A stretch of DNA of 32,000 bases from Gemmata obscuriglobus (GTDB taxonomy: Bacteria; Planctomycetota; Planctomycetia; Gemmatales; Gemmataceae). This document shows positions 2,079 through 29,486 of this stretch, piece after piece. The position numbers and the translations under genes were made by a program. Location: assembly GCF_008065095.1 (NCBI RefSeq), contig NZ_CP042911.1:450001-482000 (forward strand), read 5' to 3'. The notes below the pieces were generated by a model that saw only the letters and a program-made list of their open reading frames with translations, searched no databases and was not told the origin of the DNA. The stretch's first letter is position 1. Every line of letters starts with the position of its first letter.

Positions 2079-2137
2079 CGGTGCGGGTTCCTGAAATTCT
2101 GTCGGTGGCTTGGGGCTCGCACCCCGCGCGACGCGGA

Positions 2138-2158
2138 CCGCGCCCGTACCGGGCGCGG
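2138..2158 (-). other. Intercistronic hairpin between the two permease genes
   Basis: CCGCGCCCG (2138-2146), loop TAC, CGGGCGCGG (2150-2158): a perfect 9-bp stem within the 156-nt gap (2079-2234). No U tract. Confidence 0.35.
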
Positions 2159-2234
2159 AAGCCTGTGCAGTACCTTTTACTTTGAGCGCGCCGGGGCACG
2201 GCGCGGGACGAGAGCCGTGTGCGACGACCGGGCC

Positions 2235-3878
2235 TCACGCCACGCGCGCGAACACCTCGGCCACCTTCACGTTCTTGGCGGCCAGCGCCGGACCGATGCA
2301 CCCCGCGAACGACACCGCCATTCCCAGGGCCGGGCCGTAGACGAGCGCGTTGGCGGGCACGAAGAACGCTCCAAAAAACATGATCTGGAACTTCACGTTC
2401 CCCAAGAGCCCGTAGGCCATCAGCGCACTCATCCCGCCCCCCAGGAACCCCACCAGCAGCGCCTCGCCGAGCACGATCAGCAGCACGTGCCGCGGGGCGA
2501 ACCCGAGCACCTTTAGCACCGCCATCTCGGTGCGGCGCTCGCGCACCGAGATGCTCAGCGCGTTGGCGACCACGAGGCTCATGATTCCGATCATCGCGGG
2601 CACCAGGATGAACTTGATGCCCCAGAAGATGTCCTTGAACGCCCCCAGCCAGGTGCCGATGCCGCTGGACGCCGTTTCGAGCTTGATCGGCACCTTGTTA
2701 AACTTCGCGGGATCGTTCACCTTCTGGCTCAGCACCTCGAACGCTTCTTTGGTCGGGAGCCGCACCCAAATGAGGTTGATGGACTTCTCGGCCATCGGGT
2801 GCTTTTCGCCCTTCGGGTTGGCCGTTCGGTCCCGCTCGTAGGCGTCGATCTGGCGGAGCAGATAGTCCTTGTTCATGAACGAGACGCCCTCGTACTTGCC
2901 GTCGGGCAGCTCGCCGATGATGGTGAAGTCGAACACCAAGTTCGGGTAGTTCACCCCGCTCAGTTTGAGGTTCTCGCCCACCTTCTTGTTCAGCGCCTTG
3001 AGCCGGCTCTTGCTCATCACGATGGCCTTGTCGTTCTTGGTCATCGCCTCGCACGCCCGGTCCAGCAGCTCCTTCTCCTGGCCGGTCAGTTCGTCCAGGC
3101 CGTCCATCATGGTCGTAACCTTGTTCGGCTCCAGCGCGAACAGGAACACCATGTTGTCCTTGCGCATGTTCACCTTGTCGGTGGTGCCGAGGATGAACGA
3201 CCAGCTCATGATGTCCTTGTCGCCGTTCGCCGGGCGCATCTCCGGCGGCAGCTCCTCCAGGCACACCCGCTTGAACTCCTCGTAGTACCCCGGCGGCATC
3301 TGGCTCGGGATGATCGTCTTGTGGGTGACGATGGCCTTGAAGTTCGCCTCCTTCTCGGTGGTGGCGTTCCCGATCATGTACAGCACCGCGTAGATCAGGC
3401 ACAGCACCAGCGTGAGCACGAACAGCGCGAGGTACGTGAGCGAGCTGCGGAGCATGCTGCGGCGCAGCCCGCGGAACATCATGAGCAGCAGGCGCCGCGG
3501 GAACATCGGGAGCAGCGGTACCGACGCCCCGAGGAGCGCGGCCGCGGTCGGCGCGACCAACAGATACCCGAGAAACTTCAACAGCGTGCCCAACAGCGCG
3601 GCCGGCATCGGCAGCGTGGTCAGCACCGGCTGCAGCGCAAAGCACCCTGAACAAACTAAACTGCACGTCCCGATTACGCCCCAGCGGAGTACCGGTCGGG
3701 CCTCATCGGTCGCCAGCTCGAAGTTCCACAACGTCAAGAAAAACGCGGGGAGGGTGATCGTGCCCAGGGCGATCCCGCCGCCGATCAGCCCGACCAGCGC
3801 GCCGAACATGTAAGCGGCGAGCTGGAGCATGGACGTGTCGTACCCGAACCCGCCCGTTTCCATCGGCATGCCGAACAT
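2235..3878 (-). CDS. ABC transporter permease, FtsX/MacB type (first permease), with ~140-aa N-terminal multi-TM extension
   Basis: 547-aa ORF. The C-terminal part, RRTEMAVLKVLGFAPRHVLLIVLGEALLVGFLGGGMSALMAYGLL, matches the FtsX domain. A large extracytoplasmic domain lies between TM1 (LTYLALFVLTLVLCLIYAVLYMIG) and the FtsX block. Extra hydrophobic helices precede TM1. It follows the ATPase gene on the same strand. Confidence 0.85.
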   Translation of the reverse strand: MFGMPMETGGFGYDTSMLQLAAYMFGALVGLIGGGIALGTITLPAFFLTLWNFELATDEARPVLRWGVIGTCSLVCSGCFALQPVLTTLPMPAALLGTLLKFLGYLLVAPTAAALLGASVPLLPMFPRRLLLMMFRGLRRSMLRSSLTYLALFVLTLVLCLIYAVLYMIGNATTEKEANFKAIVTHKTIIPSQMPPGYYEEFKRVCLEELPPEMRPANGDKDIMSWSFILGTTDKVNMRKDNMVFLFALEPNKVTTMMDGLDELTGQEKELLDRACEAMTKNDKAIVMSKSRLKALNKKVGENLKLSGVNYPNLVFDFTIIGELPDGKYEGVSFMNKDYLLRQIDAYERDRTANPKGEKHPMAEKSINLIWVRLPTKEAFEVLSQKVNDPAKFNKVPIKLETASSGIGTWLGAFKDIFWGIKFILVPAMIGIMSLVVANALSISVRERRTEMAVLKVLGFAPRHVLLIVLGEALLVGFLGGGMSALMAYGLLGNVKFQIMFFGAFFVPANALVYGPALGMAVSFAGCIGPALAAKNVKVAEVFARVA

Positions 3879-3997
3879 GATGTTTTGGTGTTTGGGTGTT
3901 GGTATTCGGTTGTTGGTGTCTGGTGTTCAGCCGTTATCGCGGCCGGGCGCCGTCGCGAGTTACAGGTCGCCAAATGCTCAACACCGAATCCCAGGAA

Positions 3998-4702
3998 CTA
4001 AGCGTGCACGGCAGCGGTGTCGTGGACCAGTTGCCCCTTCTCCAGGTGCAGCGTGCGCTGCGCCCGGCCGGCGGCCTTCGGGTCGTGCGTGACCATGATG
4101 ATCGTCTTGCCCAACTGCGAGCGCAGGATCTCCATCAACTGGAGGATCTCGTCGGCGCTCTTGGTGTCGAGGTCGCCGGTCGGCTCGTCCGCGACGATGA
4201 GCGTCGGGTCGGTGACCATCGCGCGGGCGATGCCGACCCGCTGCTGCTGGCCGCCGGAGAGCTGCCCGGGGCGGTGGTCCATGCGGTTCGTGAGCCCCAC
4301 CAGGCCGAGGGCCGTCTCCACCTGCTTGCGCCGCTGCTCCTTCGTGAGGTTGAGTAGCAGCAGCGGCAGCTCGACGTTCTCATAGGCCGTCAGCACCGGG
4401 AGCAGGTAGTAGAACTGGAACACGAACCCGACGTGCCGGGTGCGCCACCGCGCCAGCTCGCTCTCCGACATCGCGGAGATGACGTTCTCGCCGACGGTGA
4501 TGCTGCCGTCCGTCGGCGTGTCGAGCCCGGCGATGAGGTTCAGGAGCGTCGTCTTGCCGCTCCCCGACGGCCCCATCAGGGCCAAGAACTCGGCCTCGCC
4601 CACGTCGAGCGTGAGGTCCCGGAGCACGTGGATCGATTCGGTGCCGCGGGTGAACGATTTGTGCAGGTCGCGCACCTGCACGATGGCGCGGGAAGTGGTC
4701 AT
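3998..4702 (-). CDS. ABC transporter ATP-binding protein (MacB/LolD-like NBD, stand-alone)
   Basis: Walker A GPSGSGKTT, signature LSGGQQQR, Walker B LIVADEPT, H-loop VTHD. GAGGAG lies 3 nt upstream of the ATG at 4702. Confidence 0.95.
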   Translation of the reverse strand: MTTSRAIVQVRDLHKSFTRGTESIHVLRDLTLDVGEAEFLALMGPSGSGKTTLLNLIAGLDTPTDGSITVGENVISAMSESELARWRTRHVGFVFQFYYLLPVLTAYENVELPLLLLNLTKEQRRKQVETALGLVGLTNRMDHRPGQLSGGQQQRVGIARAMVTDPTLIVADEPTGDLDTKSADEILQLMEILRSQLGKTIIMVTHDPKAAGRAQRTLHLEKGQLVHDTAAVHA

Positions 4703-4741
4703 CGGCTCCTCGTGTGCGGTTGCGGCGTCACTCGTCCAGCG

Positions 4742-6112
4742 TCACTTTTTCCCGGGCCACGCCTTGCCCCAGGCCGCAGCCCGCTGCGCCTCGTCGCCCC
4801 ACTGGAGGTCGGTCGCGGGCGAGGGCTCGAACAGGCTCTCGTACACGGTCGCGGTGACGCTCATCTTGGGCTTCAGGAACGCGTCCCGGTCGTTGTCGAG
4901 TTCGTCCTTCGCCAGGTAGGCCCGGATGCGCACCTTCACCACGTTCTTGGTGTCGTCCGCGATCGGCATCACCCGGTCCACGACGCCGCGGTACTCCCGG
5001 TTCGGGTCGGCGTCCGCCTGGAGTTTGCACCGCTGGCCCGGCCTGATTTTGGTCACTTGCCGCTCGGGCACGTCGATCTCCACCTCCAGCTTCGCGAGGT
5101 CCGCGATGAGGCAGATGCCGGCCGCGACGTTGAACGAGTTCGGGCTCACCAGCGCGCCCTTGTCCGCGGACTTCGTCAGGATGGTGCCGTCGATGGGCGC
5201 CGTAACCACGCAGTTCTCGACCAGACGCCTGGCCTCGTCGCAGCGGGCCTTCGCGGCGCTCAGATCGGCCTTGGCGGACCGTACCGTCGCGTCGGCGGTT
5301 TTGGAGTCGGCCTCGGCGGCCTCGATCTCGCGCTTCGCGGCCTGAATGTCCGCCTCGGCGGCAACGCGGTCGGCGTCCGCGGCCTGCTTGTCGGCGTCAA
5401 ACCTCTGGTAATCTTGGAGCGAGATGCCGCCGCCCACCCGCTGCTGCTGCGCCTGCTCGAAGTCCTTGGTGGCGCGCCCCTGGAGGGCGATCGCGCGGGT
5501 CAACCGGGCCTCGGCCGAGGCCAGTGCGGACTTTACCTTCGCCACCTTGGCCGCGGCCCCGATCAAGCCGGCTTCGGCGCGCGTCACCTGGGCCTCGGCG
5601 GCGGCCACCGACGCCACCTCCGTGTTGTGCCGGTTCGCGTACAGGTGATCGAGCAGCGTGGCGAGCCGGTCGCCCTTTTTCACCCGTTTGCCTTCGACGA
5701 AGTAGACCTCGGTGATTTCCGCGGCCACGTCCCGCGGGCTGACCGTGATCTGAAGGGACGGGATCACGTTGCCCTTCAGTTGGGTCACCAGCGCGCCGGC
5801 CTCGACCTCCGGCGTGCTCGGGCCGCGGGCCGGGCCGGGCGACGCCGGAGCGTTGCCGGCGGCCGGTGCGGTTGTGGGGGCTGCGCCGGCGGGCGCGTCG
5901 TCGGCCCGCTGCCCGCCCTTCTGGTACGACCGCACGCCGACGCCCGCCCACGCCGCCGCGAGCAGCCCGCACAGCACCCACGGGAGCCACGAGCCGCCGC
6001 GGACGCCCGCGCCGCCCTTGCCGATCTGGTTGTCGAGCCGGAGTTGCTGGACCCGGTTCACGAGGTCGCCGTTCATCGAGGCGCTCGGCCCGGGTTCGGT
6101 CGAAACAGCCAT
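4742..6112 (-). CDS. HlyD-family periplasmic adaptor (membrane fusion protein) of the ABC system
   Basis: N-terminal TM anchor (WLPWVLCGLLAAAWAGVGV), lipoyl-like motif (VEGKRVKKGDRLATL), a long A/E/R-rich coiled-coil segment, and a C-terminal beta-rich part. The ATG at 6112 is 3 nt downstream of the tetR stop. Confidence 0.85.
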   Translation of the reverse strand: MAVSTEPGPSASMNGDLVNRVQQLRLDNQIGKGGAGVRGGSWLPWVLCGLLAAAWAGVGVRSYQKGGQRADDAPAGAAPTTAPAAGNAPASPGPARGPSTPEVEAGALVTQLKGNVIPSLQITVSPRDVAAEITEVYFVEGKRVKKGDRLATLLDHLYANRHNTEVASVAAAEAQVTRAEAGLIGAAAKVAKVKSALASAEARLTRAIALQGRATKDFEQAQQQRVGGGISLQDYQRFDADKQAADADRVAAEADIQAAKREIEAAEADSKTADATVRSAKADLSAAKARCDEARRLVENCVVTAPIDGTILTKSADKGALVSPNSFNVAAGICLIADLAKLEVEIDVPERQVTKIRPGQRCKLQADADPNREYRGVVDRVMPIADDTKNVVKVRIRAYLAKDELDNDRDAFLKPKMSVTATVYESLFEPSPATDLQWGDEAQRAAAWGKAWPGKK

Positions 6113-6115
6113 ACG

Positions 6116-6841
6116 TTAGCCCTCGCTCCCCGGCGCGCCGGGGGTGGGTGAATCGGGCACCGGCGCGAACAGTGGTGCGAACAGTTTCGTCACCGCGCCG
6201 AGCATCTCCGTCCGGTCGAACGCCTCCGGGTCCATCATGAGCTGCACGTCCAACCCGTGAATCAGAGCCTGAACGAGTGCCGCCGCCACCCGCGGCGGGG
6301 CGAACCGCGGCTCGGGTACGCTCCCGGCCACATCGGCGGCGATGAACGAACGCCACTCGGCGTACCACTGGGCGAGCCGCTTGCGGTACTCCTCGCGGTG
6401 CCCGGTCTGCGCGAGAAACGTGAACAGGATGCTGAGGAGGCTCTGTGCCGGGGGCGTCGGCCACGCGGGGGCGAGGTGCCGCTCCAAGGCGAACCGGAAG
6501 CACTCCCCGGCGCGGCCGGTCTGCGGCTTCGGCCCGTCCTCACTCTGGAACTCGCTAATCATCCGCCGCAGCATCCGGTCGTGGACCGCGAGCAGGATCG
6601 ATTCCTTGGTCGGGAAGTAGTACGTCAGTTGCCCGCGACTCATCCCGGCCCGCTCTTCGATCCGCCCGAGCGACAGGTGCTGGATGCCGTGGCCGGCGAT
6701 GATGGCCTCCGCCGCATCCAGGATCTGCTCGCGCCGGGTGACCGCGATCTCCGATAGCCCCACCGCCGGGTCACTCAACCCGCGGATCGGGTGCTTGTGC
6801 AGCTCTTCACAAGCATTCGCTTCTCGCACCGTGTCATCCAT
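6116..6841 (-). CDS. TetR-family transcriptional regulator (first gene of the ABC efflux operon)
   Basis: HTH region ILDAAEAIIAGHGIQHLSLGRIEERAGMSRGQLTYYFPTKESILLAV. ATG at the complement of 6839-6841. Confidence 0.85.
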   Translation of the reverse strand: MDDTVREANACEELHKHPIRGLSDPAVGLSEIAVTRREQILDAAEAIIAGHGIQHLSLGRIEERAGMSRGQLTYYFPTKESILLAVHDRMLRRMISEFQSEDGPKPQTGRAGECFRFALERHLAPAWPTPPAQSLLSILFTFLAQTGHREEYRKRLAQWYAEWRSFIAADVAGSVPEPRFAPPRVAAALVQALIHGLDVQLMMDPEAFDRTEMLGAVTKLFAPLFAPVPDSPTPGAPGSEG

Positions 6842-6903
6842 CAGAAAAACGCCGCCCTCTAAGTAATATTGAGAGCGGACGTTCCGTCGAAGGGTCTGAA
6901 GCG

Positions 6904-6919
6904 TAGACCAAGAGGTCTA
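6904..6919. promoter_or_regulatory. Palindrome TAGACC-AAGA-GGTCTA, candidate TetR operator in the divergent tetR / TolC-like control region
   Basis: Perfect 6-nt arms with a 4-nt spacer, about 63 nt upstream of the tetR ATG (6841). A second imperfect 19-nt palindrome, CTCTAAGTAATATTGAGAG, lies at 6857-6875. Confidence 0.4.
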
Positions 6920-7118
6920 TTTACAATGGCCTGATAGTAGACTGACCAGACTAGGCCGTCAAGACGAACTCAGGCGAAAGGGCGAATTTCCAGCAGACCC
7001 CAGCTTCACAGCCGGCGGAACTCATCACCGGGGTAATCGGCGCGATTCGGGCGATCGGCTCAAACGGCGCCATTGATTCGTCCGATGTAAAGGAGAACGG
7101 ACTTGATTGGGAGGCGGT

Positions 7119-8360
7119 ATGCGTGTGGTGCTCGGAGCGTGTGCGCTCGCGTTCGGCGTTGCCGCCGGGTGCCGCGCGCCTGCGCCGGCTCCGCCCGCCT
7201 TCGCGCCGCGGGCTACTGTCGCAGCGAACGCTCCCGAACTCCCGCTCGCCGCCCCCGACCGGGTCGAGCCCGATGTGAGCCGGCTCGCGCGGACGCCCAT
7301 CAAGCCCATCAGCGCGAGTGCCGAAATCGCTTACCGGCGCCTCACCGAGCCGGCGTGCCAGGCACTCGCGGCGCAACACACACCGGCCGCAAACGCGCTG
7401 GACGAAGAGGGGCGTGCCCCCGCCGCGTGTGAACGCCGGACCGACGAATTGAAGCGCGTGTTGCGGTTCTGTGCGGCGCTCGAGCTACGGAACCGGTCGG
7501 CGGCCGATGCCGCGGAGCGGTTCTTTCAGCTCGCAGCCGTGGAGGGCCAGACGGACTTCCTCCGGGAGGCCTTTCCCCGCCTCGACGAGTTACTCGATAA
7601 GGCGAAGGGCGCAAGGGCCGCGAACGTGCGGTTCCCCCTCGACCCGGCCGATTTGGAGCGGCAACGCGTCCAGATGCTGACGCAGCTCGAGCAGGCGGAA
7701 GCCGGCAGCGCACTACTCAACATCGACCTGAAACGCCGCTTGGGACAGCCGGCGGTGAGCGAGCGGCTGTGGCCGAGCGGGGACTTCGGCATCCAAACGG
7801 AGGTGCCTCACGTCGAAGAGGAAGTGACCGCCGCGCTCGCGGATCGGCCAGAGTTGCGCGGGCTACGCGCGCTTCACGCGGGCCTGATTCCGGACGCACT
7901 TCCACTCGCGCGAGAGCACTTGCGGGGAACCAACCCCTTGCTCGGTTCCGCCCCTCCCCCGCCCCGGGGGCTGGCCAGATTACTGCGTCGCAGCGCAAGC
8001 GCCGAAACGCTGTCCGAACTTGAGGTGCGCAGGAAACAGCTCGCGGACCTGATCGAAGCGCGGGAGCGGGCGGTCGCGGACGAGACGCGGGCCGCGGTGG
8101 TGTCACTGACGGCACAGGCGCGGAAGGTGCAACTGGCGCGTGACCGGCTCGACCTCTGGGCCGCGCAGCGAACAGACGCCGTGAAGAAGCGCGAAGCGAA
8201 CCAGCCCGGGGCCGAGTTGCTCGAAGCACAGGTCACCCTCGAATGGCTCAAAGCACGCACGGAAGTGGTCGGGGAGGTGATGGCGTGGCACACCGCCCGC
8301 GTGCGCTTAAAAGCCGCGAAGGGCTGGCTCGCCTGGGAGTGTTTGGGCGCGGGGCGGTGA
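7119..8360 (+). CDS. TolC-like outer-membrane efflux lipoprotein (OMF/NodT-like)
   Basis: MRVVLGACALAFGVAAGC is a signal peptide with a lipobox-like Cys. The body consists of two long helical repeats with OMF-like segments (LTQLEQAEAGSALLNIDLKRRLG; LEAQVTLEWLKARTEVVGEVMAWHTARVRLKAAKG). GGGAGG lies at 7109-7114 before the ATG at 7119; the track begins at TTG 7107. The gene is divergent from the efflux operon. Confidence 0.6.
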   Translation: MRVVLGACALAFGVAAGCRAPAPAPPAFAPRATVAANAPELPLAAPDRVEPDVSRLARTPIKPISASAEIAYRRLTEPACQALAAQHTPAANALDEEGRAPAACERRTDELKRVLRFCAALELRNRSAADAAERFFQLAAVEGQTDFLREAFPRLDELLDKAKGARAANVRFPLDPADLERQRVQMLTQLEQAEAGSALLNIDLKRRLGQPAVSERLWPSGDFGIQTEVPHVEEEVTAALADRPELRGLRALHAGLIPDALPLAREHLRGTNPLLGSAPPPPRGLARLLRRSASAETLSELEVRRKQLADLIEARERAVADETRAAVVSLTAQARKVQLARDRLDLWAAQRTDAVKKREANQPGAELLEAQVTLEWLKARTEVVGEVMAWHTARVRLKAAKGWLAWECLGAGR

Positions 8361-8607
8361 AACTTCGAATGCCGCAAGTCGCCAGGCGGAACGAGCGGCG
8401 CCCGGGCCACTCGCACGACTTGAGCACGGTGCGGGTGTCGCGCATCGCCTGTACCACAATGTCCGGCAGCGCCTTGTGAAACTCCGAAGCCCGGCTCGGT
8501 GCGGGAACGCGACCAAGTTGTACAAGGGCTTCTGTGATGTGCATACGGCTGGAACGCTCAGCCGTAGGACGCGAACAGATTTGAGGCAACCGCGCACAAG
8601 TCAGATA

Positions 8608-8638
8608 CGTCGCGGGGCGGAAACGTGCACCCGCGACG
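8608..8638. terminator. Hairpin in the convergent gap between the TolC-like and DUF1501 genes (weak terminator candidate)
   Basis: CGTCGCGGG (8608-8616), a 13-nt loop, and CCCGCGACG (8630-8638): a perfect 9-bp stem. No U tract. Confidence 0.3.
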
Positions 8639-8760
8639 AAACGCAGCGCGGCCGATTTGCGGTGCGGCTGAAATGCGCCCCCGCGGTCGGCACGCGCACG
8701 GGCTACCGGTCCGTTGTCGCGCGGGCCTTCGGCTCAGCGACTTGCCCCGCCCCGCCGGTG

Positions 8761-10188
8761 CTACGCCAGGATCTCCTTCACCACTCGACCGTGGACATCG
8801 GTAAGCCGGTAATCGCGGCCCTGGAACTTGTACGTGAGCCGCTCGTGATCGATCCCGAGCAGGTGCAGCATCGTTGCGTGGAGGTCGTGAACCGGGAAGA
8901 CCTTCTCCTCGGCGTTGTACCCGAACTCGTCGGTCGCGCCGTAGCTGACCCCGCCCTTGATGCCGCCGCCTGCGAGCAGCACGCTGAACCCCTTCATGTG
9001 GTGGTCGCGGCCGTTCCCGCCCTGCGACATCGGCGTGCGCCCGAACTCGCCCGTCAACACGATGAGCGTGTCCTCGAACATCCCGAGCCGCTTCAGGTCC
9101 TTGATGAGTGCGGCCAGCGGCGCGTCGATTTCCTCGATCTTCAGTTTGATGCCGTCCTTTACCCCGCCGTGGTGGTCCCAATCGCGGTGGTAGAGTTGGA
9201 TGAACCGCACGCCCTTCTGGGCCATCCGGCGCGCGAGCAGGCAGTTGGCCGCGAACGACCCGTCCGCGCCCTTCGTGCCGTAGCTCTCGAGCACCTTCGC
9301 CGGCTCCTTTGACAGGTCCATCAGTTCGGGAACGCTCGTCTGCATCCGGAACGCCAGCTCGTACTGCCCGATGCGGGTGGCGATCTCGGGGTCGTCCACT
9401 GCCGCGTTCTGCATCTGGTTCAGGCGTGCGACCGCGTCGATTACGTCCTTCTGCTGCTCCGCGCCCACCCCGGGCGGGTTGGTCAGGTACAGCACCGGGT
9501 CGCCCTTACCCCGCAGTTGCACGCCCTGAAACTTGCCCGGAAGGAACCCCGCCGACCACTGGCGCGACGCGATCGGCTGGTTCTGCCCGCCGCGGCCGTT
9601 CGAGGTCATCACCACGAACCCGGGCAGGTCGGCCGACTCACTCCCGATGCCGTAGGTGAGCCAGCTCCCCATGCTCGGGCGGCCCGACACGCTGGAGCCG
9701 CTGTTCATGAACGTGTGCGCCGGGTCGTGGTTGATCGCCTCCGTTTTGCACGAGCGGACCACGCACAGGTCGTCCGCGACCTCGGGCAGGAACTTGAACA
9801 GCTCGTTCATCTCCTGTCCGCTCTGGCCGTGCTTCTTGAAGCCCCACTGCGGGCCGAAGCAGGTCAGCTTTGCCCCCTGGAGCTGCGCGATCGGCTGGCC
9901 CTTGGTCACGCTCTCGGGCATCGGCTGGCCGTGCCGCTTGGCGAGTTCGGGCTTGTGGTCGAACAGTTCGAGGTGACTGGCGCCGCCGGCCATCACCATA
10001 AAGATGACCCGCTTGGCCTTCGGCGGGACGTGCGGCTTCGTAACCACGCCGCGCGGCGGCGGAGTAGCCCCGGCAACGGCCTGTGGCAGCAGCGAGGAGA
10101 GTGCGAGCGCGCCGACTCCGCGGCACGATTGTGTGAGGAACGTGCGGCGCTGGTGCAATCGGATCGCGGCGAGGAGATCGGCGTTCAT
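8761..10188 (-). CDS. DUF1501 domain protein (sulfatase/alkaline-phosphatase-like fold), Tat-type leader
   Basis: Twin-arginine leader HQRRTFLTQSCRGVGALALSSLL. Blocks VIFMVMAGGASHLELFDHKP, HDPAHTFMNSG, YHRDWDHHGG and GRDHHMKGFSVLLAGGG are typical of planctomycete DUF1501 proteins. Confidence 0.9.
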   Translation of the reverse strand: MNADLLAAIRLHQRRTFLTQSCRGVGALALSSLLPQAVAGATPPPRGVVTKPHVPPKAKRVIFMVMAGGASHLELFDHKPELAKRHGQPMPESVTKGQPIAQLQGAKLTCFGPQWGFKKHGQSGQEMNELFKFLPEVADDLCVVRSCKTEAINHDPAHTFMNSGSSVSGRPSMGSWLTYGIGSESADLPGFVVMTSNGRGGQNQPIASRQWSAGFLPGKFQGVQLRGKGDPVLYLTNPPGVGAEQQKDVIDAVARLNQMQNAAVDDPEIATRIGQYELAFRMQTSVPELMDLSKEPAKVLESYGTKGADGSFAANCLLARRMAQKGVRFIQLYHRDWDHHGGVKDGIKLKIEEIDAPLAALIKDLKRLGMFEDTLIVLTGEFGRTPMSQGGNGRDHHMKGFSVLLAGGGIKGGVSYGATDEFGYNAEEKVFPVHDLHATMLHLLGIDHERLTYKFQGRDYRLTDVHGRVVKEILA

Positions 10189-10210
10189 GGCGAGGGTCCG
10201 GCGGGGCGGG

Positions 10211-10612
10211 TCAGCGGGTCAGAGCCTGGCGCAACTTCTCTTTCGGGTACTCGACGGCGTAGACGGTCAGCGCACCGTAAGCGACGAGCAACAGCGCGAC
10301 GGTCGCGATCAACACGACGGCTTGAGCCGCACCGGTTCGCCGCAGCGCCCAGATCGCAGCGAAATCCGCGGCCAGTGCCGCTCCGGCGGCGAGCCCCAGC
10401 GCCCACCAGTAGTCCGCTACGAGAGTCGAAAGGCTCACAACGAACCGGGTGGCCTTGGGCAGCGTGAGGGCGTACCGGTCGAAGACCTGCGCCGCCGGCG
10501 GCACGTAAATGACGTAAAGGACGAACAGCCCGAACAGAAGCGCCGCGTGCAGTGCGACGCCCCAGGCCGAGGTGCCGAACCCGCGCGGCGGCGGTGCGTA
10601 TGACGCGCTCAT
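10211..10612 (-). CDS. Small polytopic membrane protein resembling a single GspF/PilC (T2SS-F) repeat
   Basis: The ATG at the complement of 10610-10612 is preceded by TGAGGGAGTCAGCG (upstream stop followed by a GGGAG SD). The sequence VPPAAQVFDRYALTLPKATRFVVSLSTLVADYWWALGLAAG follows the vP.f..vF....LP..T..l..ls....yww pattern of T2SS-F domains. It has three to four hydrophobic helices. The longer track ORF (start 10681) overlaps the upstream gene. Confidence 0.55.
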   Translation of the reverse strand: MSASYAPPPRGFGTSAWGVALHAALLFGLFVLYVIYVPPAAQVFDRYALTLPKATRFVVSLSTLVADYWWALGLAAGAALAADFAAIWALRRTGAAQAVVLIATVALLLVAYGALTVYAVEYPKEKLRQALTR

Positions 10613-19800: not shown

Positions 19801-19813
19801 CCGCCCTCGCGTT

Positions 19814-19935
19814 GTGTCTGGAGTGTGGCCCGCTCGCTCCGCGAGCGGTGCTTCGCGCGTCAGATCACGGTTACGAATCGCAGCACCGGCCACATCGCAA
19901 CCGCTCGCGGAGTGAGCGGACCACACCCCAGACAC
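19814..19935. repeat. Long inverted repeat (35-nt arms, 52-nt spacer) filling the convergent kinase / heme-protein gap; REP/MITE-like element or bidirectional terminator
   Basis: The left arm, GTGTCTGGAGTGTGGCCCGCTCGCTCCGCGAGCGG (19814-19848), pairs with the right arm, CCGCTCGCGGAGTGAGCGGACCACACCCCAGACAC (19901-19935), at 32 of 35 positions. The three differences are all transitions. Each arm also contains its own small hairpin (CCGCTCGC-TCC-GCGAGCGG). Confidence 0.7.
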
Positions 19936-19959
19936 CACACGGGTTCCGCGCGAACCGCG

Positions 19960-23187: not shown

Positions 23188-23344
23188 GTAATGCGTTCCA
23201 ATGGCGAGATAGGTGAATTGTAACCGGCCCACCGCATCCGGAAACGAGAATTCGGGCGCCGCGCCGGCGGAAGTGACCGCGCGAGCCGGAACGGGACACC
23301 GCCCCGAAATTCGCCAGTCTTTCCGAACCGAGTGAAAGTTGGGC

Positions 23345-23400
23345 TTGTCGCTTATTTCACAAGTGGTTACTATTTACCGGACGGACCAATCCGTTAAATA
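23345..23400 (+). promoter_or_regulatory. Candidate promoter (TTGTCG-17 nt-TACTAT) and overlapping imperfect inverted repeat (candidate TetR operator)
   Basis: TTGTCG at 23345-23350 and TACTAT at 23368-23373. Inverted repeat: TATTTA(23371-76)..ACGGA(23381-85) CCAA TCCGT(23390-94) TAAATA(23395-400). This is the AT-richest stretch of the locus, directly upstream of tetR (ATG 23423). Confidence 0.4.
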
Positions 23401-23422
23401 TCTAAAATCAGTGAAACGCCGT

Positions 23423-24061
23423 ATGAGTGTCACTGAGAACCGGAAGCCCGGGCGCCCGCGCGACCCCGATCTGGAGGCGCGGCGCAAGGCCCAGATCCTG
23501 GACACCGCCGCCCGCGTGTTCGCCACCTTCGGGTTCGCGAACACGCAGGTGCAGACCATCGCCAACCACCTCGGGGTCGGGAACGGGACCGTGTACCGGT
23601 ACTTCCCGACCAAGGAGCAACTGTTCCTCAGCGCCGTCGAGCGCGGGCTGAAGGAGCTGGAAGCCGAGATGGACGGCGTGCTGGCGCAGCCCCACCAAGG
23701 GGCCGACCTGATCCGCGCCGCGGTGCGGGCGTACCTGGGGTTCTTCCACCGGCGGCCCGAGATGGCGGAGCTGTTCATCCAGGAGCGGGCCGCGTTCCCG
23801 CACCACCACCGGCCGCTCTACTTCGTCACCAAGAACGCCGAGGCCGAGTGCAAGCACGAGGCGTTCTTCAACCACCTCGTGAGCGCCGGCGCGATCCGGG
23901 CGGTGCCGCGGGAGCGGTTCTTTAACGTGCTGGGCGATCTGCTGTACGGCACCATCCTCACCAACCTGCTGACCGGCCGCCCGAGCGACCCGGACGCGCA
24001 GGCCGCGGACGTGCTCGATGTGGTGCTGAACGGTGTTCTTGCGGCAAAGGAGACGCGATGA
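23423..24061 (+). CDS. TetR-family transcriptional regulator of the RND operon
   Basis: ILDTAARVFATFGFANTQVQTIANHLGVGNGTVYRYFPTKEQLF. ATG at 23423 follows the only AT-rich stretch of the locus. Its stop overlaps the next ATG (ATGA at 24058-24061). Confidence 0.9.
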   Translation: MSVTENRKPGRPRDPDLEARRKAQILDTAARVFATFGFANTQVQTIANHLGVGNGTVYRYFPTKEQLFLSAVERGLKELEAEMDGVLAQPHQGADLIRAAVRAYLGFFHRRPEMAELFIQERAAFPHHHRPLYFVTKNAEAECKHEAFFNHLVSAGAIRAVPRERFFNVLGDLLYGTILTNLLTGRPSDPDAQAADVLDVVLNGVLAAKETR

Positions 24062-25512
24062 GCGCAGAACCGACACCCCTCGAAGGCACCCAAAGCAACC
24101 CACCCCCCGGCCCCCGCGCCGCGCTCGCCGGCCCTGTCAGCGGAGCTTCCGCGGGCCGGCGGGCAGGGAGGGGGGGGGCGGCGGATGCCCCTCGCACGCT
24201 CGATTCGCAAGGCGTTTCGGGAGTGCCTTCTCTCCCCCTTCCCTTCAGGGAGGGGGGCCGGGGGAGTCGGTTGGTACCGCTCCTGCTCCTCGCCCTCCTG
24301 TTCCCCGCGTGCGCGCCGAAGCCGCCCGCGACCACCGCGGACGCCGCCGCGAAGGTGGTCCCGGTGACGGTCGCCGAGGCGAAGGCGATGAAGCTGCGGC
24401 GCACGGTCCCGGTGTCCGGCACGCTGTACCCCTACGAGGACGTGATGCTCGCGCCGAAGGTCGGCGGGCGGGTGCTGCGCGCGTACCACGACGTGGGCGC
24501 GCGGGTCCGCCCCGGCGAGCTGCTCATGGAACTCGACCCCACGGAGTTCCGCCTCGCGGTCGACCAGGCCCGGCCCGCGTTCGAGGGCGAGCTGCGCAAG
24601 CTGAAACTGGCCGCGCTGCCCGCCTCCGACGCCGAGTTCGAGCCGCTGATCGCCAAGGTGGACGCGGTGGCCGAGGCGAAGGCCAACGCCGACTTCGCGG
24701 ACTCCGAGCTGAAGCGGGTCGAGAAGGAGGTCGCGGGCGGGGTCGGGTCGCGCCAGGCGCTCGACTCCGCGATCAACCGCGTGGCGGTCGCGCGGACCCG
24801 GGTGCTGGTGGCGGAGACCGAGGCCCGGGTGACGCTCGCCAACGCCCGCCGGCTCAAGGCCGCGCTCGAGGACGCCGAGCGCAAGCTCGCGGACACGAAG
24901 CTGTGCGCCCCGAACCCGCCCGAGTGGAACGACTGGGTGCAGCAGCTCGGCACGACCGCGACCCCGCTGTCCTACGCCGTGGCCCAGCGGATGGTCACGC
25001 CCGGCTCGTCGGTCGAGTCGATGCCGCTGACCAACTGCTTCCGGCTGGTGATCGACCACGCGCTGAAGTTCGGGGTCGCGGTGCCCGAGAAGCACGCGCC
25101 GGACGTGCTGGTGAACCAGCAGGTGGAGCTGAGCGTGCTGGCCCACCCGGGGCACCTGTTCAACGGGTTCGTGGCCCGGATCAGCCCCACCATCGACCCG
25201 ACCAGCCGCACCTTCGGGGTGGTGATCGGGGTGCGCAACGGGGACGGCCGGCTGAAGGCCGGCGGGTTCGCGACCGGGGAGGTGGTGGTCGGCTCCGACG
25301 CGGTGACCACGGTGCCGCCGGAGGCGCTGGTGTCGTTCGCCGGGGTGAACAAGGTGTTCGTGGTCGAGGGCGACAAGGCCCGCGCGGTCGAGGTGACGGT
25401 GGGCACGCGCGACAAGGCGTGGCTGGAGGTGGCCGGCGTGCCCGCGGGCGCGAAGGTGGTCACGAGCGGGCAGTCGCAACTGGTGGACGGCGCCCCCGTC
25501 CGGATCAAGTAG
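24058..25512 (+). CDS. RND efflux periplasmic adaptor (MFP); true start uncertain (ATG 24058 or TTG 24271)
   Basis: Lipoprotein-like segment LVPLLLLALLFPAC, then VTVAEAKAMKLRRTVPVSGTLYPYEDVMLAPKVGGRV...VRPGELLMELDP (lipoyl hairpin), a coiled coil, and beta-barrel/MP domains. The first 71 codons are G/P/R-rich, have visibly more A/T at third positions, and contain a repeat element. See the findings. Confidence 0.85.
   Translation: MSAEPTPLEGTQSNPPPGPRAALAGPVSGASAGRRAGRGGAADAPRTLDSQGVSGVPSLPLPFREGGRGSRLVPLLLLALLFPACAPKPPATTADAAAKVVPVTVAEAKAMKLRRTVPVSGTLYPYEDVMLAPKVGGRVLRAYHDVGARVRPGELLMELDPTEFRLAVDQARPAFEGELRKLKLAALPASDAEFEPLIAKVDAVAEAKANADFADSELKRVEKEVAGGVGSRQALDSAINRVAVARTRVLVAETEARVTLANARRLKAALEDAERKLADTKLCAPNPPEWNDWVQQLGTTATPLSYAVAQRMVTPGSSVESMPLTNCFRLVIDHALKFGVAVPEKHAPDVLVNQQVELSVLAHPGHLFNGFVARISPTIDPTSRTFGVVIGVRNGDGRLKAGGFATGEVVVGSDAVTTVPPEALVSFAGVNKVFVVEGDKARAVEVTVGTRDKAWLEVAGVPAGAKVVTSGQSQLVDGAPVRIK
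24232..24264. repeat. Second copy of the 33-nt repeat (opposite orientation) in the tetR-MFP junction / MFP 5' region
   Basis: CTCCCCCTTCCCTTCAGGGAGGGGGGCCGGGGG (24232-24264) is the exact reverse complement (33/33, compared by hand) of 27639-27671. A degenerate partial copy, GGGCAGGGAGGGGGGGGG, lies at 24161-24178. Confidence 0.75.
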
Positions 25513-25642
25513 TCCCAGGTCGTCAGGTCGCAAGTCCCAAGTCAATAACAGGGAGCACCGATGGCGGCCATTGGCGAGCGGTCCCAGGTCGTCAGGTCGC
25601 AAGTCCCAAGTCAGTAACAGGGGAGCACCGATGGCGGCCATT
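25512..25642 (+). repeat. Tandem duplication (period 69 nt) of the upstream flank and first codons of the four-helix-bundle gene
   Basis: 25512-25572 and 25581-25642 differ only by one substitution and one 1-nt indel: GTCCCAGGTCGTCAGGTCGCAAGTCCCAAGTCA(A/G)TAACAGGG(G)AGCACCGATGGCGGCCATT. Confidence 0.85.
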
Positions 25643-25999
25643 CGACGGTTCGAGGACATTGAAGCCTGGAAGCGGGCGCGCGTCCTGACCAACTTAGTGT
25701 TTCAGATCACGGGCGGGGCGGCCTTCGACCGCGATTACGGGTTCCGGCGTCAGATGCGGGACGCGGCGCTGTCGGTGATGTCGAACATCGCTGAGGGGTA
25801 CGAACGAGACAGCGGCGACAAAGACTTTCGGCACTTCCTTTCCATCGCGAAAGGTTCGGCCGGGGAGGTCCGAAGCCAGCTTTACGCGGCGCTAGACAAC
25901 AATTTCATTTCTCAAACGCAGTTCGACGAGGCGTCGGCACTCACGACCGAGGTATGCCGGATGCTTCAGCGGTTCATGTCGTACTTGTCGGGCGAGTGA
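25631..25999 (+). CDS. Four-helix-bundle protein (23S rRNA intervening-sequence protein family, Avd-like fold)
   Basis: MAAIRRFEDIEAWKRARVL...FRRQMRDAALSVMSNIAEGYERDSGDKDFRHFLSIAKGSAGEVRSQLYAA matches the family pattern (W..A...., Q..RAa.Si..NIAEG, F..fL.iA.GS..E). GGGGAG lies 5 nt upstream of the ATG at 25631. It has many more A/T-ending codons than neighbouring genes. Confidence 0.85.
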   Translation: MAAIRRFEDIEAWKRARVLTNLVFQITGGAAFDRDYGFRRQMRDAALSVMSNIAEGYERDSGDKDFRHFLSIAKGSAGEVRSQLYAALDNNFISQTQFDEASALTTEVCRMLQRFMSYLSGE

Positions 26000-26005
26000 G
26001 CCCCA

Positions 26006-26132
26006 CCGCCCCGTCAGTGTCTTCGATTTGTGACTTGGGACTGGTGGACCTCAGACGGAACCGATTGATCCCGGCCGCCCCGTCGGTGTCTTCGACTTGT
26101 GACTTGAGACTTGTGGACCTGAGACCCAAATC
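26006..26132 (+). repeat. Tandem duplication (period 69 nt) downstream of the four-helix-bundle gene, inverted relative to the upstream repeats
   Basis: 26006-26056 and 26075-26125 differ at 5 of 51 positions: CCGCCCCGTC(A/G)GTGTCTTCGA(T/C)TTGTGACTTG(G/A)GACT(G/T)GTGGACCT(C/G)AGAC. TGACTTGGGACT (26031-26042) is the exact reverse complement of AGTCCCAAGTCA (25533-25544 and 25602-25613). Confidence 0.85.
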
Positions 26133-29100
26133 ATGGCCATCTGGGACATCTGCATCCGCCGCCCGGTGTTCACCACCATGCTCGTGCTCGGGCCGGTGGT
26201 GCTCGGGATGGCGTCCTACGGGCGGCTCGGGGTCGAGCTGTTCCCCAACGTGGACGTGCCCGTCGTGGTGGTCACCACCACGCTCCGCGGCGCCGGCGTC
26301 GAGGAGATGGAGTCGAGCGTCACCCGCCCGGTCGAGGAGGCGGTGAACACCGTCTCGGGCATCGACGAGCTGCGCTCCACCACCAAGGAGGGCGTGTCCA
26401 GCGTCGTCATCGGGTTCAAGCTGGAGCGGAACGGCGACATCGCGGCCCAGGACGTGCGCGACCGCATCTCCACGCTGCTCCCGCGGCTCCCCTACGGCAC
26501 CGACGCGCCGGTGGTCGAGAAGTTCAACCTGGACGCGGCCCCGGTCGTGACGGTGGTGGTGTCCGGCGGGCCGGGGCGCAAGCTGCGCGAGGTCACCGAG
26601 ATCGCCAAGAAGCAGATCAAGGAGGACCTGGAAGGGGTGACCGGGGTCGGGTCCGTGGTGCTGGTCGGCGGCGAGCAGCGGGCGGTGAACGTGACGCTGC
26701 GGCCCGAGCGGCTCCGCGCGCTGAGCCCGCCCCTGTCCCCCGAGGACGTGCGGCGGGCGCTGGCGGCGCAGAACATCGAGCTGCCGGGCGGGAAGGTGGA
26801 CGGCGGCGCCCAGGAGCGCGGGCTGCGCGTGGTGGGCCGCATCCAGACCCCGGCGGACTTCGAGAACGTCATCATCGAGACCCGCACCGACGAGAACGGG
26901 CTCAAGTACGCGGTCCGCGTGAAGGACGTGGCGGACGTCACCGACGACATCGAGGAGCCCCGCGGGAAGTCGCGCCTGGACGGCAACGTCGCGGTCAGCC
27001 TCGTCATCCAGAAGCAGTCCGGCGGGAACACGGTGGCGGTCGCGGACCGGGTGAAGGAGCGGCTCGCCAAGATCCAGTCGGGGCTCCCGGCCGACATCAA
27101 GACCGAGATCATCCGCGACCAGAGCAAGTTCATCAAGGGGTCCATCGAGGAGGTGAAGTTCCACCTCGTGCTGGCCGCGGTGCTGGTGATCGCGACCATC
27201 TTCATCTTCCTCCGCGACTGGCGGGCCACGCTGATCGCCGCGACCGCGGTGCCGACCAGCATCGTGGGCACGTTCGCGTTCATGGACGTGATGGGGTTCT
27301 CGCTCAACAACATGACCCTGCTCGGGCTGATCCTGGCGGTCGGGATCGTGATCGACGACGCGGTGGTGGTGCTGGAGAACGTGTTCCGGTACACGGAGGA
27401 GTACGGGCTCAGCGGGTGGGACGCGGCCAGCAAGGCGACCAAGGAAATCGCGCTGGCGGTGGTGGCGACGACGCTGTCGCTGGTGGTGATCTTCGCGCCG
27501 ATCGCGTTCATGTCCGGCCAGGTGGGGCGGTTCTTCAACAGCTTCGGGTTCGTGGTCGCGTTTGCGATCATGATGAGCATGGCGGTCAGCTTCACGCTCA
27601 CTCCGATGCTGTGCGCCCGGCTGCTGCGGGGACCGACCCCCCCGGCCCCCCTCCCTGAAGGGAAGGGGGAGAAAGAACCTTCGCGCGCCGATCACGAACC
27701 CGGCGCGCACACCGCGAGCGAATCGGACTCCCCCACTCCCTTCAGGGAGGGGACGGGGGTAGGTTCCTCCCACGCCCACTCGTCCGGCTGGCTCACGCGG
27801 TGGTACGTCGGCACCCTCGCCTGGTCCCTGCGGCACCGGTGGGTGATCGTGCTCGCCACGGTCATCACGTTCCTCAGCACGCCGGTGCTGTTCGTGCTCG
27901 TCGGCACCGACTTCGTGCCGAAGGACGACCAGAGCGAGTTCGAGGTCGCCATCACCCTGAAGGAGGGCTCGACGCTCGCCACCGCCGAGGCGCAGTGCGC
28001 GGAGCTGGAAGAGAAACTCAAGAAGGTGCGCGGGGTGACCAACGTGTTCACCGTGATCGGCCCCACCGACGGGCGCGCGCCGAAGGGGCAGGGGGACGTG
28101 ACGCAGGTCAACATCTACTGCCGGATGAGCGACATCTCGCTGCGCGACTTCGCGCAGCGCGACGCGATGGCCGACGCCCGCGTGGTGCTGGCCGACTACC
28201 CCGACCTGCGCACCTCCGTGCAGGACGTGAAGCTGATCAGCTCGAGCGCGTTCAAGAACGCGCAACTGGACCTCAGCATCCGCGGCCCCGACGGCGACAA
28301 GCTCGACCGGTACGCGGCCGAGATCATGAAGAAGATGAAGGCGAACCCGAAGTTCACCGACGTGGACACCAACGCCGCGGCCCGCAGCCCGGAGCTGCAG
28401 GTGCGCATCGACCGCCAGCGGGCGGCGGACCAGAAGGTGAACGTGCAGGGCGTGGCCACCGCGCTCAGCCTGCTGGTGGGCGGCGAACCGGTCACGAAGT
28501 ACAAGGAGGGCTCGGACCAGTACGACGTGTGGCTCCGCGCCGCGCTCCCGAGCCGCGACCGGTCCGCCACGATCGACCAGTTGCTCGTGCCCGACACGAA
28601 GGGGCAGATGGTGGAGCTGCGCACCCTCGCCCGGCTCGCCGACGAGCGCGGGCCGGCGACCATCGAGCGGTACAACCGGCAGCGGCAGATCGGCGTGCAG
28701 TGCAACTTCGCGCCCGGGGTGGCGCTCGGCAACGTGCTGCCGGAGGTGGAGGGGTACGTGAAGGAGCTGGACCTGCCGCCGGAGTACCGGTACGAGTTCC
28801 TCGGCGAGGCCAAGCTGATGGCCGACTCCAACGCCAACTTCCTGCTCGCGTTCTTCCTGGCGTTCGTGTTCATGTACATGATCCTGGCGGCGCAGTTCGA
28901 GAGCCTCGTCCACCCGATCACGATCCTGATGGCCGTGCCGCTGACGCTGCCGTTCGCGCTGATCTCGCTGATGCTGCTGCGCACGCCCCTGGACATCTAC
29001 GCGATGATCGGGCTGTTCATGCTGTTCGGCATCGTGAAGAAGAACGGCATCTTGCAGGTGGACTACACGAACGTGCTGATCGCGAAGGGGCTCCCGCGCG

Positions 29101-29486
29101 ACGAGGCGATCCTCCGTGCGAACGAGGCCCGGTTCCGGCCGATCCTCATGACGACCGTGATGCTGGTGGCGGCGATGATCCCCATCGCGACCGGGAGCGG
29201 CCCCGGGGCCGGCGCCCGGGCCAGCATGGCGAAGGTGATCCTCGGCGGGCAACTCCTGTCGCTGCTGCTGTCGCTCCTGGTGACGCCGGTGGCGTACTCG
29301 ATCTGGGACGACATGATGAACCGCGGGAAGCGGGTGGCGGCGTGGATCGACCGGCGGCGCACGCGGCCGGCCCCGGCGGCAATCGCGATGGCGGAACCGG
29401 TCGCGGAGCACGCGGCGGCCGAAACGGTTCAGGAAGTGCCGGTGTTCCGGGAGGCCGAATCGGACGCCGCCCCGACCGGGTCGTAA
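26133..29486 (+). CDS. RND efflux transporter permease (AcrB/HAE-type), carrying an in-frame repeat-derived insert in the TM6-TM7 cytoplasmic loop
   Basis: 1117-aa ORF. N-terminal IRRPVFTTMLVLGPVVLGMASYGRLGVELFPNVDVPVVVVTT. Twelve-TM architecture with two large periplasmic loops. GLILAVGIVIDDAVVVLENV is an RND TM4 motif. Confidence 0.95.
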   Translation: MAIWDICIRRPVFTTMLVLGPVVLGMASYGRLGVELFPNVDVPVVVVTTTLRGAGVEEMESSVTRPVEEAVNTVSGIDELRSTTKEGVSSVVIGFKLERNGDIAAQDVRDRISTLLPRLPYGTDAPVVEKFNLDAAPVVTVVVSGGPGRKLREVTEIAKKQIKEDLEGVTGVGSVVLVGGEQRAVNVTLRPERLRALSPPLSPEDVRRALAAQNIELPGGKVDGGAQERGLRVVGRIQTPADFENVIIETRTDENGLKYAVRVKDVADVTDDIEEPRGKSRLDGNVAVSLVIQKQSGGNTVAVADRVKERLAKIQSGLPADIKTEIIRDQSKFIKGSIEEVKFHLVLAAVLVIATIFIFLRDWRATLIAATAVPTSIVGTFAFMDVMGFSLNNMTLLGLILAVGIVIDDAVVVLENVFRYTEEYGLSGWDAASKATKEIALAVVATTLSLVVIFAPIAFMSGQVGRFFNSFGFVVAFAIMMSMAVSFTLTPMLCARLLRGPTPPAPLPEGKGEKEPSRADHEPGAHTASESDSPTPFREGTGVGSSHAHSSGWLTRWYVGTLAWSLRHRWVIVLATVITFLSTPVLFVLVGTDFVPKDDQSEFEVAITLKEGSTLATAEAQCAELEEKLKKVRGVTNVFTVIGPTDGRAPKGQGDVTQVNIYCRMSDISLRDFAQRDAMADARVVLADYPDLRTSVQDVKLISSSAFKNAQLDLSIRGPDGDKLDRYAAEIMKKMKANPKFTDVDTNAAARSPELQVRIDRQRAADQKVNVQGVATALSLLVGGEPVTKYKEGSDQYDVWLRAALPSRDRSATIDQLLVPDTKGQMVELRTLARLADERGPATIERYNRQRQIGVQCNFAPGVALGNVLPEVEGYVKELDLPPEYRYEFLGEAKLMADSNANFLLAFFLAFVFMYMILAAQFESLVHPITILMAVPLTLPFALISLMLLRTPLDIYAMIGLFMLFGIVKKNGILQVDYTNVLIAKGLPRDEAILRANEARFRPILMTTVMLVAAMIPIATGSGPGAGARASMAKVILGGQLLSLLLSLLVTPVAYSIWDDMMNRGKRVAAWIDRRRTRPAPAAIAMAEPVAEHAAAETVQEVPVFREAESDAAPTGS
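27639..27759. mobile_element. MITE/RPE-like insert with terminal inverted repeats inside the RND ORF (in frame)
   Basis: The left end, CCCCCGGCCCCCCTCCCTGAAGGGAAGGGGGAG (27639-27671), and the right end, CTCCCCCACTCCCTTCAGGGAGGGGACGGGGG (27728-27759), are imperfect inverted copies of each other. The codons across the segment show clearly more A/T third positions (gga, cct, gaa, aaa, gat, act, gta, ggt) than the flanking codons. Confidence 0.55.

Follow-up and report, generated by a model that had tools for sequence, protein, structure and literature searches.

In a 32 kb stretch of Gemmata obscuriglobus DNA (the window, whose positions serve as coordinates throughout), the 620-nt spacer between the genes for an MFP periplasmic adaptor and an RND permease contains one gene, for a four-helix-bundle (4HB) protein of PF05635/TIGR02436, and this gene is flanked by tandem heptamer arrays, those on the left being inverted copies of those on the right. 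We consider it probable, with some reserve, that the locus is a resident copy of a widespread class of cassettes, each a 4HB gene in the loop of a hairpin whose arms are inverted arrays with an RGTY core, lodged here in the spacer of a TetR-MFP-RND operon. Our comparisons support the view that its architecture is that of the open reading frame (ORF)-bearing intervening sequences (IVSs) of 23S rRNA, found here in the spacer of an mRNA operon. Seen across the family, the locus is one instance, unusually with two tiers, of a rule that the sampled 4HB genes follow across many phyla, and rRNA IVSs appear to belong, as a special case, to a wider class of cassettes borne on hairpins. A search of the literature, which was incomplete and reached few subscription journals, found nothing tying 4HB genes in general to heptamer-array hairpins, and the family-wide rule appears not to have been described previously.

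The 4HB gene and its two tiers of inverted arrays

The 4HB gene and the four repeat units around it, lettered from left to right, are as follows.

25631..25999, + strand: 4HB protein gene GobsT_04230, 122 residues (PF05635, TIGR02436, PDB 2GSC)
25512..25580, + strand: unit A, outer left arm; direct repeats; pairs with unit D in the minimum-free-energy (MFE) fold
25581..25630, + strand: unit B, inner left arm; pairs with unit C in the MFE fold
25993..26061, + strand: unit C, inner right arm; direct repeat and inverted repeats
26062..26132, + strand: unit D, outer right arm; Tandem Repeats Finder period 7 at 26094-26115

The ORF (ATG 25631, TGA 25999) encodes GobsT_04230, which is found on contig ABGO01000196 and on a 9-Mb chromosome. 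PF05635 is its only significant Pfam match and covers profile positions 1-105 of 106 (E 9e-32; 109.9 bits, cutoff 33.8), and TIGR02436 matches at E 2.7e-31 (108 bits, cutoff 24); a preliminary description of this DNA had placed one gene of the rRNA-IVS family in the 620-nt spacer, and these matches bear it out. Among solved structures its nearest relative is that of XCC0516 from Xanthomonas campestris (PDB 2GSC, chain A; E 4e-12 with the single protein and E 2e-16 with a profile), followed by a second solved homologue, PDB 2RLD (profile E 7.8e-05). Both are structural-genomics entries without an assigned function, and each holds five chains.

The arrays fill the spacer exactly, from the stop codon of the MFP gene (TAG 25510-25512, which overlaps the first base of the left array) to the start codon of the RND gene. 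Unit A opens with the heptamer array GTCCCAG GTCGTCAG GTCGCAA GTCCCAA GTCA (25512-25544), continues with a copy of the Shine-Dalgarno (SD) region and of the first 12 nt of the ORF (ATGGCGGCCATT, 25551-25572) and closes, directly after that copy, with 8 nt of unrelated filler (GGCGAGCG, 25573-25580). Unit B has its array at 25581-25613 and then runs into the real 4HB leader with its SD region GGGGAG. On the right, unit C begins within the last 7 nt of the ORF (CGAGTGA) and carries a reverse-complement array (26025-26056) with the perfect 12-mer TGACTTGGGACT at 26031-26042, and unit D consists of the head CGATTGA, the reverse-complement array GACTTGT GACTTGA GACTTGT GGACCTGAGAC (26094-26125) and a terminal CCAAATC that abuts the RND ATG. 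As a separate observation, the stop codon of the host gene and the initial unit of the left array often overlap (TAGTC or TGAGTC), in the window at 25510-25516 and likewise in the loci L094, L099, L091 and L005, and the left array thus begins exactly where the upstream coding sequence ends.

Both flanks are doubled. On the left the period is 69-70: 25512-25553 recurs at 25581-25622 with 98% identity, and 25551-25572 recurs at 25621-25642 with 100%; compared as whole units, A (25512-25580) and B (25581-25649) share 98-100% identity over 61 nt. On the right the period is 69, and the identity of 25993-26056 with 26062-26125 is 86%. The preliminary description had recognised this doubling and its 69-nt period but let the downstream repeat start at 26006, whereas its true start is 25993, within the 7 nt that end the ORF, where CGAGTGA is answered by CGATTGA. 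It had also seen that the flanks are inverted around a 12-nt core, which stands, and had limited their pairing to 20-25 bp, which does not: a gapped local alignment of the left flank with the reverse complement of the right runs over 96 nt and spans both tiers (z = 9.8 against 200 dinucleotide shuffles). The sequence AGTCCCAAGTCA is found four times at no more than one mismatch, twice on each strand and nowhere else in the 32 kb, with 0.07 occurrences expected. In the MFE fold of the RNA from 25500 to 26145 (-282.3 kcal/mol) the units form the nested two-tier stem that had been proposed to enclose the ORF, A pairing with D and B with C, and a separate fold with 120-nt flanks gives 72 flank-to-flank pairs. 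Compared with shuffled controls the fold is better both in the window (z = -3.6) and in the one-tier cassette of a relative, L008 (z = -4.1).

Searches for signs of a known mobile or structured element at the locus gave little. Rfam has no rRNA or other family in 24000-27500, the 33-mer singled out by the preliminary description has no second copy within the window, and we saw no convincing target-site duplication, the only sequence common outside the arms being the 4-nt ATCA, which is compatible with chance. No integrase was found in the neighbourhood, and the repeats lie on both sides of the ORF and not as a single attC. A sigma-70 promoter scan detected no promoter of the cassette and a terminator scan gave no match at the locus, both being weak evidence in a planctomycete.

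Inverted heptamer arrays around 4HB genes of other genomes

For the family at large we sampled 80 4HB loci among the matches listed, one genome per species and chosen by protein motifs only, from Planctomycetota, Acidobacteriota, Bacteroidota, Verrucomicrobiota, Nitrospirota, Chloroflexota and other phyla; G. obscuriglobus itself is not included. At each locus the 160 nt upstream of the gene were aligned with the reverse complement of the 160 nt downstream and the score was set against dinucleotide shuffles of that locus. These shuffles, together with a control of neighbouring genes, replaced an earlier null built from the duplex energies of permuted pairs, which was dropped because GC content confounds it. 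The flanks form an inverted repeat at z > 5 in 64 of the 80 loci (median z 8.9). The median flank score is 39.5 for the 4HB genes and 16 for 300 neighbouring ORFs in the same loci (Mann-Whitney p = 2.6e-33), and 84% of the 4HB loci lie above the 95th percentile of these ORFs. The few controls with high scores are divergent 4HB genes, small ORFs beside heptamer arrays or palindromes, and a RAYT gene bracketed by REPs (L054), the last a useful positive control of the test. Moreover, the MFE fold is closed by at least 15 flank-to-flank pairs in 68 of 79 4HB loci as against 23 of 57 small control ORFs, and no Rfam family covers the flanks of the 4HB genes. At the level of sequence, then, the inverted-array bracket is a rule of the 4HB family that holds across many phyla.

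The arms are built of units with a period of 7 in 60 loci and of 8 in nine, with a median of 4.4 units per arm and a unit logo of R-G-T-Y-Y-M-A (G 0.89, T 0.86), the core being R-G-T-Y. Upstream arrays are of the GT type in 65 cases and of the AC type in three, and downstream arrays are of the AC type in 59 and of the GT type in one. We rejected a reading of the 65:3 ratio as a polarity relative to transcription, because a hairpin of the form X...rc(X) is identical on both strands; the ratio fixes the GT-type arm as the 5' one on either strand and not the strand that is transcribed. The upstream neighbour is co-directional with the 4HB gene in 68 of 77 loci, and both neighbours are so in 51 of 71 (72%) as compared with 45% of control genes, the median gaps to the two neighbours being 81 and 56 nt.

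The preliminary description had asked whether the repeats recur beyond this locus, and arrays of the same type are indeed found elsewhere. A degenerate form of the window's left-array pattern occurs in 10 metagenome contigs, in which tblastn finds no 4HB, MFP or RND, and in most of these a left and a right array enclose a short loop of 4-57 nt; in three of nine testable contigs the array starts a few bases after an upstream stop codon, like that of the window. The two arms co-vary in the nine contigs with downstream sequence, because they agree at 36 of 56 variable unit positions as against 35% +/- 7% for permuted arm partners, the observed agreement being reached in 0 of 2000 permutations. 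The fetched loci, 0.8 Mb in all, contain 101 arrays no more than 250 nt from a 4HB gene and 78 farther away, which by our own arithmetic is a roughly 13-fold enrichment beside 4HB genes, and many of the 78 form convergent pairs.

Some 4HB loci have particularly rich surroundings. L051 has seven or more convergent GTTCAAN/NTTGAAC pairs within 9 kb (~1900-10400), L017 has a 118-nt AACCTCA array (5603-5720), and in L065 and L042 (9493-9744) heptamer arrays near the 4HB locus are very long or numerous, all of which suggests local proliferation of ORF-less hairpins. In L036 a 96-residue ORF that is not a 4HB gene (5559-5849; GYD-like by eye) has GTCCAAA arrays on both sides and lies 1.3 kb from a 4HB cassette with the same GTCCAAA unit; here, perhaps, arrays bracket small genes of other kinds as well, or two cassettes lie side by side.

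A serious rival, in our judgement improbable, is that the arrays belong to a DNA element resembling REP/RAYT systems or miniature inverted-repeat transposable elements, and act as terminal inverted repeats or as single-stranded DNA hairpins recognised as DNA. The ORF-less hairpins would then be non-autonomous, those with a 4HB gene would be masters or passengers of another enzyme, and the RNA stem would be a by-product. As in REP/RAYT (REPIN) systems, a small gene lies between inverted short repeats while gene-less hairpins of the same repeat are dispersed between genes, in our case in the 10 metagenome contigs and among the 78 arrays away from 4HB genes; in both, the hairpins often stand just after stop codons and inside operons. 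That copies of the arrays without an ORF are scattered through other contexts supports this rival, as does the capture by our flank test of the RAYT gene between REPs, whose layout is similar, and about 70 convergent pairs of heptamer arrays are on record for X. campestris (PMC4692102). However, the 4HB protein is no HUH/Y1 (IS200-like) transposase and its family has no known transposase or nuclease fold or motif, the closest structures being uncharacterised pentameric bundles, and the arms are tandem heptamer arrays and not a single palindromic REP. The lack of a visible target-site duplication and of a second copy of the 33-mer in the 32 kb also weighs against it, and the strong co-orientation of the ORF with its host genes argues that transcription matters.

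The MFP-RND site in Gemmata relatives

The preferred reading of the locus as a resident cassette draws further on the same site in related genomes. The two-tier form is also found in L001, a strain of ~97% DNA identity, with 7 differences in 851 nt. L008 has a 98% identical 4HB protein in the same operon, with one flank unit per side and spacers of 49 and 64 nt, and because it carries one tier the doubling is, among the genomes compared, specific to G. obscuriglobus. The single right arm of L008 matches the array of unit D (26094-26125) at all but 1 of 32 positions. Between L008 and the window 34% of the synonymous sites have changed whereas the arrays differ at 1 of 65 nt, so that the arrays are constrained as sequences and not only for pairing. 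In L005, where the ORF is in the same synteny, the 4HB protein is 84% identical and the MFP 71%, and the left arm keeps the heptamer register while its variable positions differ.

Comparison of the ORF with those of L008 and L005 gives a ratio of nonsynonymous to synonymous substitution (dN/dS) of 0.06-0.10, a value that shows strong purifying selection on the 4HB protein and hence a functional one. The preliminary description had taken the A/T-ending codons of the ORF, whose GC content at third codon positions (GC3) is 0.78 (MFP gene 0.95, RND gene 0.97), as a sign of recent acquisition. This finds no support, since on the midpoint-rooted MFP tree the cassette occupies the same site to either side of the root, in operons whose MFP is only 71% identical; given the dN/dS, the ORF is to all appearance an old, maintained resident despite its low GC3. 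ORF-bearing states on both sides of the root imply either an old cassette with repeated loss of the ORF or repeated re-occupation of the site.

Orthologous spacers without the ORF keep the inverted symmetry, a point on which the preliminary description had wanted them compared. In Gemmata SH-PL17 (L090 6402-6554) the 153-nt spacer is one strong hairpin of GCACAAA-type units (z = -10.4), in Gemmata G18 (L091 6237-6384) the 148-nt spacer has a left-type array, ~85 nt and a right-type array of GTCGNAG-type units, and in L089 the ORF-less spacer has only a remnant of a right-type array. Among the orthologous Gemmata spacers compared none is an empty site, the ORF, hairpins or an array remnant being always present; these states parallel the short ORF-less and long ORF-bearing forms of rRNA IVSs. 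The MFP proteins of SH-PL17 and G18 are 90% identical, yet their spacer hairpins are built of quite different units, which favours turnover of hairpins at a fixed site. Such different hairpin types in close sisters suggest fast replacement, as a DNA element would predict, although the keeping of the cassette at one site across deep Gemmata divergence counts against such an element.

The same spacers bear on a different explanation, that the 4HB gene is an ordinary, vertically inherited accessory gene, neither selfish nor mobile, and that its flanks are regulatory hairpins of the host, serving as mRNA stabilisers, as processing sites or in preserving the translational coupling of MFP and RND. 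We regard this as quite unlikely. The occupation of one site in distant Gemmata lineages, the strong purifying selection on protein and arrays alike, the exact fit of the arrays between stop and start codon and the persistence of hairpins where the ORF is gone would all agree with it. But the arrays go with the gene and not with the operon, which a regulatory role purely in the host cannot account for: the same bracket is found on 4HB genes of unrelated operons in many phyla, and a close homologue, 81% identical and with long CAAGTCN arrays upstream and GACTTGN arrays downstream, has other, unrelated surroundings. The aberrant GC3 and the presence of family members in rRNA IVSs point the same way.

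All four genes of the operon lie on the + strand in the order TetR, MFP, small ORF and RND permease, and those other than the 4HB gene are as follows.

23339..24061, + strand: TetR-family regulator, the first gene of the operon (PF00440 E 2.1e-16); this is the longest ORF, and the database product has 212 residues
24058..25512, + strand: MFP periplasmic adaptor gene (TIGR01730 E 3.8e-44, PF16576)
26133..29486, + strand: RND permease gene (PF00873 E 6.9e-259)

The RND start, MAIWDICIRRP, is conserved in orthologues with and without the cassette. Its ATG (26133) is preceded by CCAAATC and has no SD; the preliminary description had correctly noted this, and that the ATG abuts the last repeat. Orthologous operons without the 4HB ORF likewise have no SD before RND, so that the cassette is not the cause.

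As to the origin of the two tiers, we rejected a simple tandem duplication, which is unlikely because units A and B are near-identical over 61 nt and then diverge altogether in the 8 nt that follow ATGGCGGCCATT. Both outer units carry a stretch similar to the ORF end GGCGAGTGA: the tail of A, GGCGAGCG, recalls GGCGAGTG, and the head of D, CGATTGA, recalls CGAGTGA. This suggests that the outer tier was once a resident cassette and that a second one either took the place of its ORF interior or was inserted into it; most likely, therefore, a complete cassette came to lie within what was left of an older copy, as a nested or replacement insertion. The remnants of the older copy left outside would be 12 nt of its ORF start and ~7 nt of its ORF end, and a nested insertion would also explain the equal length of both outer arms.

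Kinship with rRNA intervening sequences and a possible mechanism

The origin of rRNA intervening sequences has been an open question since about 1990. In Coxiella burnetii the 23S IVS has an S23p ORF, 28-bp terminal inverted repeats and a stem cut by RNase III, with two or three tandem heptamers, variable in number between strains, just upstream of the start codon (PMC4990558). Similar to the IVSs of C. burnetii and Leptospira, the Gemmata element has a 4HB/S23p ORF of the same Pfam family, complementary termini that form an enclosing stem, heptamers beside the ORF (arrays 25512-25544, 25581-25613, 26025-26056 and 26094-26125), a total size within ~430-750 nt, a predicted place inside a host transcript without a detectable promoter of its own, and short versions that lack the ORF (PMC4990558). 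The earlier suggestion of an IVS-like cassette in an mRNA operon is thus upheld by terminal inverted repeats, tandem heptamers and ORF that match the anatomy of the Coxiella IVS. The differences lie in the host, which is an operon spacer (MFP stop 25512, RND start 26133) and no helix of 23S or 16S rRNA, whereas IVSs sit in helix 25 or 45 of 23S rRNA; in the ORF, under strong purifying selection here but decaying and probably untranslated in Coxiella; in the stem, here doubled in two tiers; and in the unit, of RGTY type as against GACAGAT.

From these features a mechanism can be proposed. The cassette, with no detectable promoter of its own, would be transcribed from the operon promoter, and its arms would pair in the transcript and loop the cassette out, so that the stem base would have the MFP stop (25510) on one side, at 0 nt, and the RND start (26133) on the other, at 7 nt. 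In this model operon biology would gain a natural case of a 620-nt insert looped out between translationally adjacent efflux-pump genes. The long duplex is a likely substrate of RNase III, by analogy with rRNA IVSs, cleavage having been demonstrated in Coxiella (PMC4990558), and cutting would separate the MFP, 4HB and RND messages. Because a conserved RGTY core at fixed spacing exceeds what pairing needs, we infer that the core may be read by a sequence-specific factor, most simply the 4HB protein or an oligomer of it; the arms have ~4-5 units, and the solved relative was deposited with five chains.

Several observations weigh against the cassette reading or against parts of it. The charge of the 4HB protein, by residue count from the translation, is roughly balanced, we know of no nucleic-acid-binding or catalytic motif in it, and PADLOC and PHROGs searches with the protein gave no match. 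No precise junction of filled and empty site was found among the orthologous sites, and the 80 loci represent a clade 48-63% identical to the query and not all of PF05635. The nested-insertion model leaves the unequal divergence of its arms unexplained (A/B 98-100%, C/D 86%). Mismatches in the arms show no G-U bias toward the coding strand (59 vs 59), so that they do not point to selection at the RNA level and DNA-level hairpins or concerted evolution would fit equally well, which is a further point for a DNA element. Lastly, the real SD and AUG are not sequestered by the long stem here and are so in only 8 of 79 loci, which leaves an autoregulatory occlusion model without support; occlusion of SD and AUG by the long stem was accordingly rejected as a general feature, and in the window only the pseudo-start of unit A pairs with unit D.

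PF05635/TIGR02436 is a large and widely distributed family with, to our knowledge, no known function outside diversity-generating retroelements (DGRs). Avd, the accessory protein of these elements, is a pentamer that works with structured RNA and shares the four-helix-bundle fold family. That GobsT_04230 might be an Avd-type protein of a DGR, given that PF05635 is a family resembling Avd (PMC10053308), is effectively refuted: the precomputed Pfam annotation of L001/L002 has no reverse transcriptase domain among the called genes within 10 kb on either side, the locus has no pair of template and variable repeats, the only repeats found being the flank units, and neither PADLOC nor PHROGs gives a match.

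The DNA between genes of Xanthomonas and Nostoc is enriched in heptamer arrays, which were read as G-quadruplex repeats with no link made to 4HB genes (PMC4692102). These and the cyanobacterial short tandemly repeated repetitive (STRR) sequences, with units such as Nostoc GGGGAYT and Xanthomonas GGGAATC, share with our arrays the tandem 7-nt unit and a position between co-directional genes, close to the upstream ORF; by our own reading the Nostoc unit, once reverse-complemented to ARTCCCC, agrees with the RGTY core if the variable base is G. At present we can only speculate, and more in doubt than in confidence, that 4HB proteins and inverted RGTY-core heptamer arrays are one unrecognised, widespread two-part system of operon cassettes, of which rRNA IVSs would be the rRNA-resident subset and intergenic heptamer repeats (STRR, the Xanthomonas GGGAATC pairs and the ORF-less Gemmata hairpins) gene-less derivatives, with a pentameric protein that binds arrays of about five units and maintains or spreads them as RAYTs do REPINs. 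Linking PF05635/TIGR02436 to polar inverted heptamer arrays gives a testable hypothesis on the role of the protein family; if true, it would recast rRNA IVSs as one habitat of a general operon-dwelling cassette, and it may explain the over-representation of heptamer repeats in bacterial intergenic DNA.

Two further repeats in the window deserve mention. Inside the RND gene, at 27629-27771, lies a palindromic element of ~140 nt with the arms CCCCTCCCTGAAGGGAAGGGGG / CCCACTCCCTTCAGGGAGGGG, inserted in frame and encoding ...PLPEGKGE...PFREGTGVG..., and near the N-terminus of the MFP a half copy of it (24225-24265) encodes PLPFREGGRG; at precisely the position of the element, both length and sequence are hypervariable among RND orthologues, which is reminiscent of the in-frame Rickettsia palindromic elements. 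A strong hairpin at 19808-19941, with 42-nt arms that are 88% complementary and 50 nt apart, has no sequence relationship with the heptamer arrays and may be a further small repeat element.

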